Part shown: positions 3,001 through 41,350 of the stretch, piece after piece | Layout: the number at the start of each line of letters is the position of its first letter | How positions within the stretch are numbered: position 1 is the first letter of the stretch | Virus record (IMG/VR): IMGVR_UViG_3300021387_000076 | Direction: 5' to 3' (one strand) | Length of the DNA stretch: 64,000 nt | Origin: a virus | Taxonomy: Duplodnaviria; Heunggongvirae; Uroviricota; Caudoviricetes | The notes under the pieces: generated by a model | Seen by the model: the letters and a program-made list of their open reading frames with translations, nothing else | Database searches by the model: none | What the model was told of the DNA's origin: nothing | Position numbers and translations under genes: made by a program

Positions 3001-6000
3001 CCCTATTGCTCAAATGGTTTCCAATGGAATGCTGTCACTGAAAGATCTTGACAACAATGGTGACATTTTAAACGCCGGAAGTCAATTCTATCAGGGCATG
3101 TTGGGAATGCTTGATGAAAGCATAAGCGGACAAAAAGCCAGGTATACAAACTTTGTTGACGATCTTTCAAGAACAGGCAACATGTCTGTTACGGAGAGAA
3201 TAAACAGAAGTTATCAAAGCAAGCGTATGCAGTCTCTTGCATCTATAAAGCAGATGCAGCAGGAAGCTATCGATCTTGATAAGATGCTGACGACCGGAAA
3301 AGATCTTGACGGTCGTGAGATGTTTGATGTTAACGATACTTCTGAAACAACTCAGGGCATAAAAAACAGAATCGAAAAATATAGAGACTTTTTAAAAGAT
3401 ATTTCAAAGCAGGCGCAAGATGCTCTTGACAAAACTCTTCCTGATCAAGAAAGCAAAGAAATTGCCAGAACTCTCGAAGATGTAAAAACGCAGAGCGAGA
3501 TCCAGACGGATAAATATCAATATGGCGCTAATCAGATTCAGAGATCTGAAGCTGCTCGCAGACGTCAGCTTGATATGCATTCGCGTGGTTATCGAAGTGC
3601 ATTCGGACAGGAACTTGAATGGAGAAGAAATCAGTACGATAATGCTGTTTCTCGTGAAGAAAGTTATTCTTTAAGAAGAAAGCAATTGAATGCTGAAAGA
3701 ACAAGACTGCAACGTCAGCTTGATGACGATGACGCTAATGAAGAAAAACTTAGCTCCGAAGAGAGAAGTGGCATCGAAGGTCAGCTTGCAGCTGCGACCA
3801 ACGAATACGAAGCTCTTGGTGAAGCAATCGTCAAAGCAAGGCAGGAGCAGACAGAGTTTGGGGCATCAGGCCAGGCAGTTGCTGCTGCATTGACTGTTAT
3901 TGGCGGGGCAGTTTCAAAAGTCGCCAAGCAGTTTGGCACCCGCATTTGGCATATGGCTATGCAGGAAACGATGCAGTTTGTTAAATCGTATGATGCAGCT
4001 ATGACTGAAATTCAGATGGTTACACTTAAAACAGACACCCAAATATCAAACATCGGTAAAGGTTTAATTGATTCGGCTATTCAGCTCAAAGCTCCAATTG
4101 CTGACGTTACAGCGGCGGCTACCGCGCTGTACCGTCAAGGTCTCGGAGACGAAGATGTTCAAACGAGACTTCAGGATGTTATAAAATTCTCTACTACTGC
4201 AGGTGTTAAAGCTGCAGATGCAGTAAAACTTATTACAGTTTCTCTCAACTCTGGTTTAGTTAGCAGCTCCCAAGAGGCGATGGATGTTATATCGGCTCTT
4301 GGTGATTCAGCCGCAACCACAGCGGCTGAGATCACCAAAGGTCTTCAGAAGTCTGTTTATGCAGCAAAAGATGTCGGTGTAAGTTATAACGAACTTGTTT
4401 CAATGCTTACCGCAATTACTGCCGGCACTCAGCTTGGTGGCAACATAGCAGGTACTGCAATGCAGACATTTATGAGCCGCTTCTCCAAAATCGGAACAAA
4501 CGAACTCGTCTATGATGAGAATGGAAATCAGATGAGTGGATCCGCACTTGCAAGTGTTCTCCAATCTGTTGGTATAAAAACATATGAAGGCGGAGAACGT
4601 AGAAGGTTTACAGATGTGCTCAGTGAGCTTGCTGGACAATGGGATAGCTTATCAGATGCAAGAAAGAGTCAGATCTCTTATGCGTTTGGTGGAACACGTC
4701 AGTACTCAAACCTTAACGCGTTGCTTACTGCATTTGGCGAGGTTGATGAAAACGGACAGACAGCAATAGAGAAGTATCTTGGTATTGCTAAAGGCTCGGA
4801 AGGTATGACTGATGCAAAATATCAAAGCTACACCGAAAGCCTTGCTGCGTCTATCAATACATTAAAAAATAGCTTTGATGGCCTTGTTGAGTCGCTTACA
4901 AATACTAATGTGTTAACTGGTTTTATTGACTTTATATCAAATGCTATTACAGGAATAACAGAATTGAACACGGCTCTCAGTGGTGTTCCGGCTATACTTG
5001 TAGCGATAGGTGCAGCATTAACAGTTTTAACGTCTTCGAATCCGATATTGTTAGGAATTGCTGCAGCAATTGCTGGAGTGGCAGCGGTTGGCAATATTGC
5101 CCACAATATTGCAACATCTTCTAAAGTAAACTCAGATCCTCTCCATAATTTGAATTCATCAAAGAGTTCAATTGAAAAAGATAACGCAGCAAGAGTATCA
5201 CAAGTAAAAGAAAATCTGGGCATTGCAAGACAGCTTAATAAGAAAAGACTGTCTGGTCAGGAGTTGTCACAGGATGAAAGCAGCAGACTTGTTGAATCTT
5301 TAAGCAAACTGCAAAATCTTGGAGTCGATAGCATCAAAGCATCGACTGATATTAATGCCCTTGCGGCAAGCGCTCAGGCTACAGCTAAAGCGTTAGACGG
5401 AGTAACTACAGCTGCTACTGCTTTAAGCGACAGACAGGTTAAAGAACTTCTTAATGCATTCCTTACTGATGTAGATAACAATAAAGAACGTTTTCAGGAA
5501 GACAAAGATAAAATAAGTTTGTCTGATGAGGAACGCGAAACTGCTAGAAATGCAATAGATAAAGCAAAGAATAAACAATATGGCAGTGCGCTTGAATTTT
5601 ATGAAGATATTATTCCTGTTTTAAATGCTATGGATTTGTCTGGGCTTGACCGCATAACAGTCAATAGAAAAACAAATACTCCAAGTAAATTTTCTCCGCA
5701 GGAGTTGGCAGGTGTTTTATATACTGCTTACTCAAACACCCAAGAAGATCTTGAAGACTTAGGCATTGATGACTTTAACATAAGTGAATACTCTCAGTTA
5801 ATGGATGTCATTGAGTCTGTTCTGAGTAACGGTGACAGCTTGAATCGTTTAAAGAATACATTTATGTTCGGTGAAAGCAATAGAGCTGGAATAACAGAAC
5901 TTGTAAAACAAAGTCTTGCAGGTACAGCACATCAGGATATTACTGACGCTATCATCGAATCAATAATAGCGGATGCAAATCAAGCAGAAAATTTTGACTT

Positions 6001-25274: not shown

Positions 25275-25448
25275 CTAAAACCAAATAAGGTTTTGCACTC
25301 TCCTGCTAGCTGGAACATTCGGATGCCATCCACGACTTGTTCTTACGACCTCGGAGCATGTAAGAAGCGCAGGCTTGTCCGATGAAGTTATCTGTTGGCT
25401 TCAGATATACCACTCGGACTCCCTTGGTACGCTGTACGGTCTGATACG

Positions 25449-25519
25449 CTGAGATGGCAGGAATTGAACCTGCAATAGGGGAGTCAAAGTCCCCTGTTAT
25501 TCCACTTAACTACACCTCA
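25449..25519 (-). tRNA. tRNA-Gln (anticodon UUG), 71 nt, CCA not encoded
   Basis: Hand-folded cloverleaf. Acceptor TGAGGTG/CATCTCA with U1:A72 and one G-U. D-arm GTTA-AGTGGAA-TAAC. Anticodon arm GGGGA-CTTTGAC-TCCCC with U33 and A37. T-arm GCAGG-TTCAATT-CCTGC. Confidence 0.8.
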
Positions 25520-35856: not shown

Positions 35857-36480
35857 TTATTTAATACGATTGAGTTCAATTATGCCGACATTACGTGCAG
35901 CATAATAAGCATTCATTGTAGCTTTTCTGTCCATATATTGCAGATACGAAAGATCATCACCGAACAGTTCAAATTTTCCAGATTTATTTATCCCAGGAAT
36001 TGCACCAAAGTGATCTCCGTCAATAGTTTCGAAATTAAACTCATAAAAATTAAAAGCTTTATTTTTATCAGTAAAGTCAGTTACTACAGGGGTATACGCT
36101 CTGTTGGAAATATCTTCAATGATGTCATCTATTGTCTCGCCATCTGGAATATTTGCAACAAACAATGTCGGAGATAGTGTTGGAGGCAGAAATTCTCTAC
36201 GATCCGATGGGTATATTATTTTTGTAAGATGCTCTGCTGTTTCTTCTGTAACAACTTCAAGATTCAATGTATCTCCACTACGACCACTAACATTATGAAT
36301 GATAAAAATGTAGCGGTAACGACTGTTACCATTTTTATCTTTGTAGTATTGTCTTACTTTGGAATAATTTGTTCTGCAGCATCTTAGAAATTGCTCCCAT
36401 TGTATTTCAACAGGGCTGCAATAGGTATCATCGGTATCAATCTGATTCCATATATCTTTTCTATATCTTTTTATATTCAT
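35857..36480 (-). CDS. Hypothetical protein (207 aa)
   Basis: ORF only. Confidence 0.4.
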   Translation of the reverse strand: MNIKRYRKDIWNQIDTDDTYCSPVEIQWEQFLRCCRTNYSKVRQYYKDKNGNSRYRYIFIIHNVSGRSGDTLNLEVVTEETAEHLTKIIYPSDRREFLPPTLSPTLFVANIPDGETIDDIIEDISNRAYTPVVTDFTDKNKAFNFYEFNFETIDGDHFGAIPGINKSGKFELFGDDLSYLQYMDRKATMNAYYAARNVGIIELNRIK

Positions 36481-36501: not shown

Positions 36502-37583
36502 TTAAACAACATTTGCTGGAGCGTAGAAACGTTTTTTCTGTTCAGCTTGTCTGTCTTCAGACCACTTGGATACACGGGTGAGATAACCAATGACTCTTGT
36601 TGCATAGTCAAGGTTGTCTGATCCGCATTTAGGACATTTCTGCAGCTTGTGTTTGCTAATATGCCCGCAGCTGTTGCAAATAGTATTCGGAATGTTAAAT
36701 GTAAAGTAGTTGCAGCCAGTCTTGATTGCATACTTAAGCAGCTGCTTGTACTGTGTTTTGCTCAGATGCTCTTCGAGGTTGCAATGAAGAGCGGATCCTC
36801 CGTCAAGATACTGAGTAAACTCTTTGCCGTGCAGCTGGAATTTATCTACAGGATTTGTCGTCTCGTCTTCTACAATATAGAAGTAGGAATTATAACATGG
36901 ACGAGGTACAAAGTACCCATCTTCTTTGTCCCATCTGGCATTCTTAACTCCCAGATTTTCCGCAGGCACAAATTCCGTATTAAACATTTCTTTTTCTGAT
37001 TTGTGAAGCTTGTTCATGAGATAGATCGGCTTAAGCACAGCGTTAATGTAACTGCAATATTCGTCGTTATTTCCAATTTTGATACTTAAATATTCGGCAC
37101 CTTCGACTGCGCCGTTAATACCGACAGTAAGATATTCCTTTTCAGGACTGATGAAGCCGGCATCATAGATAGGTATCATGTGATTGCGAGTCATATCAAG
37201 AAGGATCTCATTATATGCATGGAGGTACATATGAATAAGTCTTGTCTGATCCTGTACGGCTGCGCTTATCTTTTTGAGCTTGTCTTCTAATGAACATTCT
37301 TCCGCATCACGACAGGTATTCTGCACGAGACGGTTCACGTTCATTGTAATTACACATTTGCTTCCGGTAGCAATTCCACCAGCGCCAAGTGTATAACTGA
37401 ACTGGTTTTCCGTAATACCATTGCGGAGCCGGCAACAGCTTGCAAGCGAATCAACGCTGTCACTCGTGTAAGTGAAGAAACTGTGACCTTCTGCATACAT
37501 CTCTGCTGCAAAGTCAGCCCATTCCTGGTCGCAGAAATCGTTGCCATCGTTTAATAAAGATAACGTTTCACCTTTATACCCTC
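36502..37583 (-). CDS. nrdD: Anaerobic ribonucleoside-triphosphate reductase, C-terminal exon (glycyl-radical domain)
   Basis: GGSALHCNLEE, CNSCGH...CPKCGS zinc ribbon and RVIGYLTRV glycyl-radical motif align with T4 NrdD. The frame is open upstream of the first Met (LLNDGNDF...) back to a TAA near 37583, with no start or SD there. Confidence 0.7.
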
Positions 37584-38635
37584 GGTTTTCCGATATTTAT
37601 TAGGGGAGTAGACCATCTCTTCATCCAATTGTTTCTGGATGCAAGGCACTTCGCTACATGAATTTCACATGATAGCTACGTCTTTCGACTGGTCGTTACA
37701 CCTTTTTAGACGCATCGTCTAAACTTGGCACGGTATTATCATGAATGACTTGTATTATTTCATTCAGTTTTAATTCTATGTTGTCAGTATGTTTTATTTC
37801 GTACAACTTAATATCATTGGCAATGCAATATTGTTTTTTTAAAAGATCAGTGTCTTCTCTTTCTCTTTTACCAAACCACGAATCACCTATTGCATAATGT
37901 TGTTCACCTTGATATTCTAATAAACCAACTAGTTTTCCATCAATAAATAAAGCAAAGTCAAAACGCAACGGAACATTGTTCTTTGAAACAAGATCTGCAA
38001 AAGAATATTGTCTTTTATAAGCAATGTTGTTTTCTCTCAACAATGAGGCGATAATGCTTTCATATTTGCTTACAATGCAACCACAACTTCTATTGTTTCC
38101 TGAAATTAAATCACCTGTAGTTACAAAACAAACTTCTCCGCAATCGCACAAACATTTCCATGTCTGTCTTTTCTTGTTGTGACTGCCAACCTCTATGACA
38201 GGTCCACGCTCAAGCACGAATAATCGATCGAATCTTGTACCTGTTAGGTCTGGGTTATTTGATTTATTATGTTGTACGAAACCTTGATACTTTAAACATC
38301 CACAAGATGGCATTTTATTTTCTTTATTCACGTGCCATCTAGCCATAAATAATTTCTTCTGAGACATTCTTACAGTCTTACTACATGCTGAACAATAACA
38401 ATCATACTCTCTTATTTCGTTATCATTCTCATCAAAGTAATCATATTCTTTTCCAACATGAATATAACCGAATGTTTCTCCAGTGAGTGACACTTTCTTC
38501 TTGGGTCTTCTTATCATATTATTCACCCACTCCAAGTTCAATTTTAGATTTTCACCGTTAGCCGATGTTACGCATCGACACCGTATATTTATACGTTCAC
38601 CTTGTTTTCTAAACATATTACTATGTTAAGCCGCT
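37565..38635 (-). mobile_element. Intervening sequence splitting nrdD. Most likely a self-splicing (group I-like) intron that carries a homing endonuclease gene. Boundaries are approximate.
   Basis: The two nrdD halves are in different frames, separated by about 1.07 kb. The second half has no start signal. Phage nrdD genes (T4) are known intron hosts. Confidence 0.5.
37696..38616 (-). CDS. Intron-encoded homing endonuclease-like protein (Cys-rich N-terminus, Vsr/PD-(D/E)xK-like C-terminus)
   Basis: 306 aa. Many CxC/CxxC clusters. C-terminal FDFALFIDGKLVGLLEYQGEQHY resembles Vsr-like/EDxHD-type nuclease cores. Located entirely inside the nrdD interruption. Confidence 0.45.
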   Translation of the reverse strand: MFRKQGERINIRCRCVTSANGENLKLNLEWVNNMIRRPKKKVSLTGETFGYIHVGKEYDYFDENDNEIREYDCYCSACSKTVRMSQKKLFMARWHVNKENKMPSCGCLKYQGFVQHNKSNNPDLTGTRFDRLFVLERGPVIEVGSHNKKRQTWKCLCDCGEVCFVTTGDLISGNNRSCGCIVSKYESIIASLLRENNIAYKRQYSFADLVSKNNVPLRFDFALFIDGKLVGLLEYQGEQHYAIGDSWFGKREREDTDLLKKQYCIANDIKLYEIKHTDNIELKLNEIIQVIHDNTVPSLDDASKKV

Positions 38636-39462
38636 ATTTTGTTAACGGGGAAAGTTAATATTTCACGAAGTCTTTCTTTATTAAACCACTTCATGAACCT
38701 TTTCTGCAGCCAACTGACTGACTCCCACTGCATAGACGTTCCATCTGGAAATACAAAGTCTTCGAATAAAGAATTAAAGTAATATTTATCGAAGTATGAA
38801 AAATTTAGGAACACTGATTGAGATCCACGGGCAGCGGCGGGCTGATTTAAACTATAAACCACCTGCTGGAAGTGATCGGTTATCACTGTATCAATGGTTG
38901 CATGTCTCGCAGAAAGGTCTACAACCTTATCTGCATGCAGATAATAGTCATTACCATATTCTTTACGCAGGAAATAGTCCATGTATGCAAGAAATTCAGG
39001 CGTTGCCACAGCTCCTTTGAGCTGTGCGGCAACGGCAAACACAAGGTTGATGAAGCCTCCGCAGAACGAGTCAAGGTTTTTCGGCGCAATAGTTGTACCG
39101 GAAAGCTTCGTCATCCCGTCAAACAGGAACGGATACAGCGTAATCGATGCACAATAAGGCACACCTGCGAACGGGAACGTGCTCTCGTCGTGTGTATAGA
39201 TCTCATGTCTTTCAAGCTGCTCAATATACAGGTCTGCTATTTCTTCATCATACAATTCAGTCAGCTTGTCGTGCATCATCAGTCTGTTGATCTTGATGTT
39301 ATCCTTCTTGTGTACTTCGGGTGCCATTGTTGCAATGTTCTTTCCTGAAACATTCGAATTGGAGTCAACCTCACTGCCTGTAGCAGTATTCTGTGCATCA
39401 ATAAACTTGTTTATAAAGTTGATATTTTTCCTGTGAACCGTGTACTTATTTGCAAGTGCCAT
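38626..39462 (-). CDS. nrdD: Anaerobic ribonucleoside-triphosphate reductase, N-terminal exon
   Basis: FPFAGVPYCASI, GGFINLVF, LNQPAAARGSQSVFLNFSYF and TFPV align with the T4 NrdD N-half. Likely start ATG at 39462 with SD GGTGA. The ORF runs into a stop just inside the intron. Confidence 0.7.
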   Translation of the reverse strand: MALANKYTVHRKNINFINKFIDAQNTATGSEVDSNSNVSGKNIATMAPEVHKKDNIKINRLMMHDKLTELYDEEIADLYIEQLERHEIYTHDESTFPFAGVPYCASITLYPFLFDGMTKLSGTTIAPKNLDSFCGGFINLVFAVAAQLKGAVATPEFLAYMDYFLRKEYGNDYYLHADKVVDLSARHATIDTVITDHFQQVVYSLNQPAAARGSQSVFLNFSYFDKYYFNSLFEDFVFPDGTSMQWESVSWLQKRFMKWFNKERLREILTFPVNKIAA

Positions 39463-39676
39463 GATCTTCACCGCTTTCGATAGAATTAATGTATCCGATA
39501 GCGTTCTGAAGATTCATAAGCGAGCCGTCAACGCTGAGTACTGGAACATGCGAAATACCAAGGTTTTTCATCTTATTCATATCCATGCATACTTCGTAGT
39601 CTATTTTTGCACTGTCAAGTCTTCTCTTAAGCATCTTGCACATCGGACAGGTTTCTGTTGAGTACAAAACTATCAT
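39446..39676 (-). CDS. nrdH: NrdH-like glutaredoxin
   Basis: YSTETCPMCKMLK thioredoxin-fold CxxC. 76 aa. SD AAGGA. Immediately upstream of nrdD. Confidence 0.5.
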   Translation of the reverse strand: MIVLYSTETCPMCKMLKRRLDSAKIDYEVCMDMNKMKNLGISHVPVLSVDGSLMNLQNAIGYINSIESGEDHGTCK

Positions 39677-40795: not shown

Positions 40796-41350
40796 TTACG
40801 CACCGGTAGAACCGAATCCGCCACTGCGTTCTGTAGTTACCTCGTCTTCTTCAGCCAAATAGTAGGGAAGGAAGATACCCTGAATGAATCTGTCGCCGGC
40901 TTCAAGATTAAGATCTATTGCCGATGCCTTAACAAGAATGTGTCCTTCATTTTTTGAATTATAATAATCCGAATCAATGATACCTGTAGTATTTGCAAGC
41001 GCGAAAGCATGTTTGAATCCAAGACTGGACCTAGGATAAAGCATAAGCACGTAACCGGGTTTAATATTGCATCTGATTCCAGTAGGAATAAGCTTATAGT
41101 ATTTTTCACTAAGATAAGTGTCTTCAGGAAGGTAAAAGTCATATCCAGCAGATCCATTTGTTGCCCTTGTTGGAAGTTTTATATTGTCATACACATAAGT
41201 GCACATCGTTAAAAATAAATTGTAATTCAAGAGCTCATCATTATACATTGAGTTAACCTCTTCTTCTGTTGGAAAATGATCTGTTTCATTCCAGCAGTCT
41301 TTACAAAACTGTTCGAAGCTTACTTTTTCAAACTTTGCAATTGCTTCCAT
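40796..41350 (-). CDS. dut: dUTP diphosphatase
   Basis: dUTPase motifs PRSSLGFKH, GIIDSDY, GDRFIQGIF and RSGGFGSTG. Confidence 0.8.
   Translation of the reverse strand: MEAIAKFEKVSFEQFCKDCWNETDHFPTEEEVNSMYNDELLNYNLFLTMCTYVYDNIKLPTRATNGSAGYDFYLPEDTYLSEKYYKLIPTGIRCNIKPGYVLMLYPRSSLGFKHAFALANTTGIIDSDYYNSKNEGHILVKASAIDLNLEAGDRFIQGIFLPYYLAEEDEVTTERSGGFGSTGA

Follow-up and report, generated by a model that had tools for sequence, protein, structure and literature searches.

A phage anaerobic ribonucleotide reductase gene very probably interrupted by a mobile IA2-like group I intron with its own Vsr-like homing endonuclease

The 64,000-nucleotide (nt) stretch of Caudoviricetes DNA analyzed here, which we call the window (IMG/VR virus record IMGVR_UViG_3300021387_000076), carries between positions 36502 and 39462 an nrdD gene, encoding the large subunit of anaerobic ribonucleotide reductase (RNR), that is broken in two by a further open reading frame (ORF). 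Does this arrangement specify two NrdD polypeptides with an endonuclease gene between them, or a single enzyme whose message is spliced? A preliminary description, made from the letters alone, favored RNA splicing of a group I-type intron, an interpretation that gains support from the fold and covariation of the intervening RNA and from an intron-less sibling gene. We are confident that nrdD is interrupted by a mobile phage IA2-like group I intron with its own homing endonuclease: the interruption, the fold, the collinearity with an intron-less allele, the nuclease fold of the encoded protein and a presence/absence polymorphism accompanied by a tract of synonymous differences can all be seen directly.

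The ORF list agrees with the three minus-strand ORFs of the preliminary description. The N-terminal part of NrdD lies at 39471/39462..38626 (exon 1 is called as a gene of 278 amino acids (aa) in contig L001, which is identical to the window), the intervening 306-aa ORF is listed at 38616..37696, and the C-terminal part runs from a first ATG at 37500 to a stop at 36502 in a frame that is open as far back as 37596. The Pfam family NRDD covers both halves (profile positions 6-203 and 223-560; profile length 562), the second of which holds the CCRLRN active-site region, the Zn-ribbon cysteines and the glycyl-radical motif RVIGYL. Upstream of its first methionine the second frame encodes conserved NrdD sequence, ETLSLLNDGNDF, as had been noticed, and these residues can be aligned to Thermotoga NrdD and recur in the uninterrupted allele P0121 described below. 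The two halves had been placed in different frames; instead, exon 1, the 306-aa ORF and exon 2 share one frame (minus-strand codon starts at coordinates equal to 0 mod 3), the exons because the intron is 358 x 3 nt long. In-frame stops between the parts lie at 38628-38626, 37698-37696, 37656, 37623, 37602 and 37599. That a single UAA (38628-38626) separates exon 1 from the 306-aa ORF in this shared frame is probably a coincidence, because in homologues a UAA in the J3/4 joining segment of the intron closes that frame again.

Alignment of the flanking exons to NrdD homologues, proposed as a way of fixing the splice sites, led to one solution. NrdD homology breaks at TFPV/ET (the slash marks the insertion point here and below), and one cut only, 38645/38644 and 37571/37570, lets exon 1 end in U and the intron in G, placing the insertion between the second and third bases of the valine codon of this conserved motif. 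Exon 1 (38645..39462, minus strand; Pfam NRDD 6-203) begins with the ATG at 39462 and ends with U38645 in ...UUCCCCGU; exon 2 (36502..37570, minus strand) begins UGAAACG and ends with the stop codon at 36504-36502. The intron (37571..38644, minus strand) reads 5' UAACAAAAUAGCGG ... GGGUAUAAAGG 3' with G37571 as its terminal base, and its 1,074 nt match the roughly 1.07 kb first estimated. Excision of 38644..37571 leaves an in-frame coding sequence (CDS) of 1,887 nt for a 628-aa NrdD, whose ligated junction reads ...AACUUUCCCCGU/UGAAACGUUAUC... and whose product aligns without a gap over the junction with T. maritima NrdD (4u3e; TFPV-ETLSLL versus TFPV-LTASLL). Intact NrdDs of isolated and assembled phages match the spliced protein as one tblastn piece (best 56%), and the region has no megablast match among 50,697 phage records, hence no annotated close relative there.

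Three ORFs in one frame look superficially like an in-frame insertion, and relatives of the window NrdD do have inteins, so that a group II intron, an intein or translational bypassing could be thought of in place of a group I intron. The six in-frame stop codons between the parts speak against this, neither a Hint/intein nor a reverse-transcriptase domain shows up in Pfam, Rfam scanned permissively has no group II match, and the inteins of the relatives sit at other sites (SCC/RLRN and GTPY/CASI) as continuous ORFs; we regard the chance of any such element as vanishingly small.

What the intervening RNA does resemble became clear from an alignment of nine family members, with ORF interiors trimmed. 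The preliminary description had named the lack of intron-like secondary structure as a finding that would speak against an intron; a covarying core from P1 to P9 is present instead. Of its own accord RNAalifold gave the paired regions (P) P1, P2, the long-range P3, P4, P5, P6/P6a, P7.1, P7.2, P8 and P9/P9.1, to which we added the P7 pseudoknot by hand. Standard pairs fill 96.2% of the cells of this consensus, including P7, versus 35-44% when partners are slid by one to three columns; 48 of 76 pairs change on both sides, versus 11-16 in the slid controls, and none of 500 shuffles reached any observed measure. Every consensus helix is intact in the window's own sequence, and energy minimization of its trimmed intron alone returns the same helices (z = -3.8). 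Structural elements expected of a group I intron are in place, namely a P3-P9 core with a P3/P7 pseudoknot, a P1 formed by the guide with U.G at the splice site, and a terminal omega-G at a boundary that restores the frame.

In order along the minus strand, P1 (38631..38648) pairs CCGU/UA with the guide UAGCGG and has U.G at the splice site, a pair found in eight of the eight sequences with letters at that position; the internal guide covaries with the differing host exons (nrdD, terL and others). Immediately 3' of P1, at intron nt 17-19, lies the in-frame UAA that ends exon-1 translation (38626..38628), followed by the P2 hairpin (38613..38627; AACAUA-GUAA-UAUGU), all six of whose pairs change on both sides and which holds a spurious ATG at 38616. 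The 5' strand of P3 (CAAGGUG, 38598..38604; partner 37642-37648) is paired in 100% of cells, with four of seven pairs changing on both sides. Then come two extra hairpins (38561..38595), hpA at 38595-38582 and hpB at 38579-38561, each with four pairs that change on both sides, and the 5' strand of P4 (ACGGUG) with J4/5 and the start of P5 (38547..38558, placed by the Rfam alignment of L091), beyond which the endonuclease ORF lies in loop L5. On its far side, P5', J5/4, P4' (UACCGU) and P6/P6a (37700..37740), kept in ORF-less relatives, also encode the last ~15 codons of the endonuclease (HDNTVPSLDDASKKV), and J6/7 (G-UAA-C), whose UAA is the endonuclease stop codon, leads into the P7 5' strand GACCA (37690..37699). 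The P7.1 and P7.2 hairpins (37653..37689), seen by covariation, are IA-type peripheral elements in a T4 sunY-like arrangement. Fold and covariation also place P3' (UGCCUUG), the P8 hairpin, J8/7 (GAAGAGA) and P7' (UGGUC) at 37611..37648, where the J8/7-P7' segment reads GAAGAGAUGGUC; P7 is GACCA:UGGUC in the window versus GACUA:UAGUC in relatives, a double-sided change. P9 (CCC/GGG) encloses the P9.1 hairpin UCGG-AAAA-CCGA, and UAUAAAG and the terminal G complete the intron (37571..37606).

The same ribozyme recurs in other contigs. Four further contigs, all divergent, namely L003, L004, L085 (of which L086 and L087 are copies) and L088, have relatives of the endonuclease (50-56% identity) at this position in nrdD, and a conserved 20-nt intron block occurs in 16 more viral contigs, in other genes. 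Large-terminase (terL) genes are interrupted by this family in L089, L093 and L094 and other large phage genes in L091, L092, L101 and L102, the ORF that it carries there being a different one or lacking; several of these contigs have identifiers in the style of IMG isolate genomes and may hence be prophages. Three copies have no ORF, only 44-93 nt lying between the halves (L091, 272 nt; L094, 281 nt; L092, 343 nt), and that of L091 exceeds the Rfam group I gathering score (53.1 versus 50 bits, E 5e-11). The two hairpins between P3 and J3/4-P4, a covarying insertion of ~45 nt present in every family member, occupy the same position in L003, L004, L085, L088-L094, L101 and L102; searching the literature for an insertion at this place brought up nothing relevant. 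At 2737-3654 of L085 an in-frame TAG breaks the endonuclease, so that it is called in two parts of 87 and 217 aa, and at ~2780-3651 of L088 its conserved start lacks the ATG; these look like stages of endonuclease decay within an intact ribozyme. Among 80 IMG/VR loci with more distant endonuclease relatives, the signature blocks of the intron appear in three, and the partnership of endonuclease and intron therefore does not generalize to the whole protein family.

These observations bear on the alternative that the preliminary description had itself raised, a free-standing endonuclease gene that splits nrdD into two separately translated, co-assembling polypeptides, as in nrdA-a/mobE/nrdA-b of Aeromonas phage Aeh1 (PMC3653736). 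Automatic callers do annotate three separate genes, a stop closes exon 1 and exon 2 has an ATG at 37500, and Aeh1 provides a precedent; yet translation from ATG 37500 would lose 23 conserved residues (ETLSLLNDGNDFCDQEWADFAAE) found in intact homologues, the break lies within a codon, and the guide of a covarying group I core pairs exactly where NrdD homology breaks. The ORF-less copies interrupt other genes with nothing there to be a free-standing gene. An Aeh1-type split would have its own start at the break and no ribozyme, the opposite of what this locus presents, and we give it a very slim chance of being right.

The group I intron reading is further strengthened by a sibling without the intron, found by searching a large protein collection with the NrdD protein spliced in silico. 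P0121 is an uninterrupted NrdD of 628 aa with 99% identity at 100% query coverage (a second protein, P0122, is 96% identical to the spliced NrdD), and its contig, L108, has the gene order of the window (RuvC, dUTPase, ThyX, a small ORF, glutaredoxin, NrdD, NrdG) and flanking DNA that is 96-99% identical. The intron is missing from the L108 nrdD, and the spliced window CDS and the L108 CDS, both 1,887 nt, align without gaps. They differ at 126 nt and 9 aa, with no aa difference within 10 codons of the junction; so few aa among so many nt differences indicate that the exons are under purifying selection, which in turn argues that the interrupted nrdD would be functional and hence spliced.

A decayed group I intron that no longer splices, leaving nrdD a pseudogene in this phage, has to be weighed at this point. 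Related copies do show endonuclease decay (the TAG of L085, the missing ATG of L088), and splicing of nrdD is something that we infer. However, all consensus helices are intact in the window, the 126 nt but only 9 aa changes, with no frameshift or stop, are unexpected for a dead gene, and all family-invariant endonuclease residues are kept; we consider decay improbable, a slim chance at most.

The sibling also reveals a signature of mobility, the presence/absence polymorphism of the intron coinciding with a flanking synonymous tract. From -15 to +18 nt of the insertion site there are 14 differences between the window and L108, all synonymous, where 3.7 are expected (binomial P ~1e-5). The tract reads ATATTAACTTTCCCCGT/TGAAAC in the window, ATTTTAACATTCCCCGT/TGAAAC in L004 and ATTCTCACATTTCCTGT/TGAGAC in L108, so that near the junction the window is closer to the intron-carrying L004 (67% overall) than to its intron-less sibling (93%). 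This is the pattern that co-conversion of the flanking exon during homing would be expected to leave. In a further contig, L106, an intron-less nrdD (57% aa identity) has exactly the 19 nt of the ligated junction; junctions of the L106 type (TAACATTCCCCGTTGAAAC) and of the L108 type (CACATTTCCTGTTGAGACC) are candidate substrates of the endonuclease.

Where does the endonuclease gene begin? The preliminary description had put its start about 10 nt after the exon-1 stop, atypically close for a group I intron, but that start is an artifact: ATG 38616 falls within the 3' strand of P2, and the gene as called in the database (P0001) begins, like its closest homologues (264-281 aa), at the equivalent of M34, that is, ATG 38517. 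A UAA in J3/4, 87-96 nt into the intron, closes the frame upstream of the conserved start in L003, L004 and L088, and this frame stays open in the window only. The real ORF, as judged from these comparisons, would thus start in loop L5, 127 nt from the 5' end of the intron, which does away with the atypical near-junction start; we annotate a 273-aa homing endonuclease gene at 37696..38517 (minus strand; ATG 38517, stop UAA 37698-37696) with two Cys-rich modules and a Vsr-like/EDxHD-type nuclease domain. The 3' end of the ORF passes through P5', J5/4, P4', P6 and P6a (CAUGAUAAUACCGUGCCAAG...AAGGUG, encoding HDNTVPS...KV) and stops at the UAA of J6/7. This tail is common to 18 of 42 homologues, and the stretch that encodes it is kept in ORF-less introns, from which it follows that the RNA constrains the protein tail. 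ORFs that reach into group I core sequences are a recognized arrangement (PMC3984707), and the ORF of I-Bth0305I likewise interrupts P5 (PMC3239194).

The 306-aa ORF had been described as Cys-rich at its N-terminus and Vsr/PD-(D/E)xK-like at its C-terminus, and the cysteines of the one half and the Vsr likeness of the other are both seen, in residue conservation and in the nuclease fold. In the window protein two CxCxCG...SCGC modules (two or three in homologues) precede a domain in which FDF, E-x-x-G-x-x-H and D-x-x-K are invariant; the protein keeps all family-invariant residues, among them D187, E201, H207 and D224, and has E153 at the position of a consensus 'GE'. An AlphaFold model built from the 42 homologues is confident (pLDDT (predicted local distance difference test) 89.7), and in it the nuclease domain has the Vsr-like fold of EDxHD homing endonucleases, so that the enzyme is predicted to be of the Vsr-like/EDxHD type; a whole-chain Foldseek search with the model was uninformative. 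The window protein does not have the N-terminal NUMOD/helix-turn-helix (HTH) DNA-binding region of EDxHD enzymes. Its Cys modules (WxCxCDCG...L..G.T.SCGC; residues 1-150) match the non-catalytic parts of the HNH-annotated PHROGs phrog_374 and phrog_559, which suggests a portable DNA-binding module shared between nuclease families; the two modules presumably bind Zn and DNA. Pfam finds DUF2726 in 22 of the 42 homologues and not in the window protein.

Several results weigh against this interpretation, on the side of the RNA and of the protein. In the Rfam group I model (RF00028) the window intron scores only 15.5 bits (E 0.6, 37588-37790) against a gathering score of 50, in a match that spans the last ~200 nt of the intron, including P8 and GAAGAGAUGGUCU; the score is low because the 0.8-kb ORF splits the ribozyme core. 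The intron-model search that had been recommended thus did find a weak group I match and, on permissive settings, no group II match. A search by eye for P10, in which the guide region would pair with the beginning of exon 2, found none, and the clustered synonymous differences may come partly from selection for P1 pairing or from target-site escape. Searches of PDB sequences with phmmer and with a 42-sequence profile gave chance-level matches and did not find 3r3p (I-Bth0305I), and Pfam assigns the window endonuclease to no family (sub-threshold CapR and DUF5889 only). The likeness of E153/D187/E201/H207/D224 to E170/D196/N208/H213/D222 of I-Bth0305I (PMC3239194) is one of order and spacing only, not of superposition. 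Set against the covarying core, the sibling and the recurrence of the family, these points leave the mobile group I intron by far the most probable explanation.

From the established chemistry of group I introns a mechanism can be derived. The guide UAGCGG would pair with CCGU/UA in the pre-mRNA to form P1 with its U.G wobble at the cleavage site; exogenous guanosine bound in P7 would attack after U38645, the last intron base, G37571, would then take the G site, and exon ligation would yield ...CCC GU/U GAA ACG... and an mRNA for the 628-aa NrdD. On unspliced exon 1 ribosomes would halt at the UAA 17-19 nt into the intron. We also infer endonuclease activity and homing: in a mixed infection the enzyme would presumably cut intron-less nrdD alleles near the insertion site, and repair from the intron-carrying genome would copy the intron and ~15-18 nt of flanking exon per side into the recipient.

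More tentatively, and with more doubt than conviction, we suggest that the intron may belong to a sub-lineage of the phage IA2-like introns that has yet to be described and that is defined by three features together. These may be (i) the conserved two-hairpin insertion between P3 and J3/4-P4, (ii) an old partnership with Vsr-like endonucleases that use tandem Cys-rich beta-barrel modules, not NUMOD/HTH, for target recognition, and (iii) an ORF tail (...DNTVPS...KV) encoded by the ribozyme core, with the stop codon in J6/7. If the third holds, an RNA could not be translated into endonuclease while P4-P6 is folded, nor fold P4-P6 while being translated, and this antagonism could set the timing of endonuclease expression relative to splicing. 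The two-hairpin insertion, the Cys-module region on a Vsr-like enzyme and the core-encoded tail are the more novel aspects of the locus, unproven as novelties.

The window holds this copy alone: regular-expression scans for the family's signature blocks found no other, a permissive whole-window Rfam scan found no second intron, and at gathering thresholds Rfam reports only a tRNA, tRNA-Gln (anticodon UUG) at 25448-25519 (minus strand). A 207-aa ORF at 35857-36480 (minus strand) lies exactly between nrdD and nrdG and is missing from L108, whose nrdD (end at 4887) is followed by nrdG (start at 4910); Pfam has no match for it, and its one PHROG match, 21138, is of unknown function. With this ORF, perhaps a selfish or accessory gene as well, the nrdD-nrdG operon has a second presence/absence insertion. 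The dUTPase gene (184 aa in the window, 189 aa in L108) has at its 5' end a short stretch, 41184-41318 (minus strand), that does not align with L108, with identity above 96% on either side.

Other members of this NrdD lineage carry inteins at SCC/RLRN and GTPY/CASITLYPF (P0144, P0189, P0221 and P0164). With the intron these amount to at least three insertion sites of selfish elements, which is why we call nrdD a hotspot for such elements. MT835492 (L109; MT835492.1 1481-2538), considered as a carrier of the same intron, has instead an in-frame 1,056-nt insertion at the SCC/RLRN intein site. In L110, an unannotated record of an isolated phage (Nitratidesulfovibrio phage SRB7757, PV062637.1 79639-84342), nrdD falls into three tblastn pieces over 3.7 kb, and hence has two interruptions.

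For annotation, the three 'genes' that automatic pipelines call in the window, and likewise in four or more related contigs, should become one nrdD with an intron-encoded endonuclease. The ribozyme family is also found in terminase and other essential genes, so recognizing its signature blocks would mend many fragmented gene calls in viral metagenomes. The intron-plus/intron-minus sibling pair with its visible flanking tract is a ready-made system for homing in uncultured phages, and supplies candidate target sites for an uncharacterized branch of the Vsr-like homing endonucleases. These enzymes are of interest as sequence-specific nucleases, and to our knowledge only one, I-Bth0305I, has been characterized. 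The nrdD intron does not overturn current understanding; it is a further case of a known kind of selfish element in phage nucleotide-metabolism genes.

How, then, does the locus compare with known systems? Phage RNR genes are a textbook setting for group I introns with homing endonucleases, and the case closest in kind is the T4 nrdD (sunY) intron with I-TevII, which likewise sits in a phage gene for the large subunit of anaerobic RNR. It has the same IA ribozyme type with P7.1/P7.2 and a closely similar core in P4-J4/5, J5/4-P4', J6/7-P7 (AACGACUAU, AACGAC), J8/7-P7' (GAAGAUAUAGUC) and the P4-P6 layout, and on these grounds the window intron is IA2-like, with one departure: in sunY P3 abuts J3/4 directly, as is expected of IA2 introns, whereas two hairpins lie between them in the window. 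The T4 intron interrupts its gene near codon 181 (the ...FQAYE region), ~75 codons upstream of the TFPV/ET site of the window, a comparison that rests on motif correspondence (the FQ..Y.....NQ/NG region), not on full alignment. T4 NrdD is only ~23% identical to the window NrdD, and tblastn of the spliced NrdD against T4 nrdD gave weak C-terminal similarity only. I-TevII carries a GIY-YIG annotation and is encoded after the core, whereas the window has a Vsr-like enzyme in L5. We conclude from the different sites, the low identity and the different enzyme and ORF place that the two insertions are independent. The T4 td intron (IA2) with I-TevI has what we take to be a similar P3-P8/P4-P6/P7.1-P7.2 core, J5/4-P4' (GACAAU-CCCGU) and J6/7-P7. 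Its ORF lies in the P6a loop without core overlap and its endonuclease is GIY-YIG.

By enzyme type the nearest known case is I-Bth0305I, the EDxHD endonuclease of the recA group I intron of Bacillus phage 0305phi8-36 (PMC3239194). In gut jumbo ('Jug') phages, nrdD and terL are fragmented by group I introns and stand-alone nucleases, and splicing of some of these introns has been confirmed by metatranscriptome reads (PMC12880540); they average ~206 nt and are mostly ORF-less, unlike the 1,074-nt intron of the window. One survey found nrdD to be the RNR gene most often split in phage genomes (PMC3653736). The Aeh1 nrdA-a/mobE/nrdA-b locus is likewise an RNR gene interrupted by an endonuclease gene, but it has no ribozyme and makes two polypeptides, whereas in the window a complete covarying group I core surrounds the endonuclease ORF.

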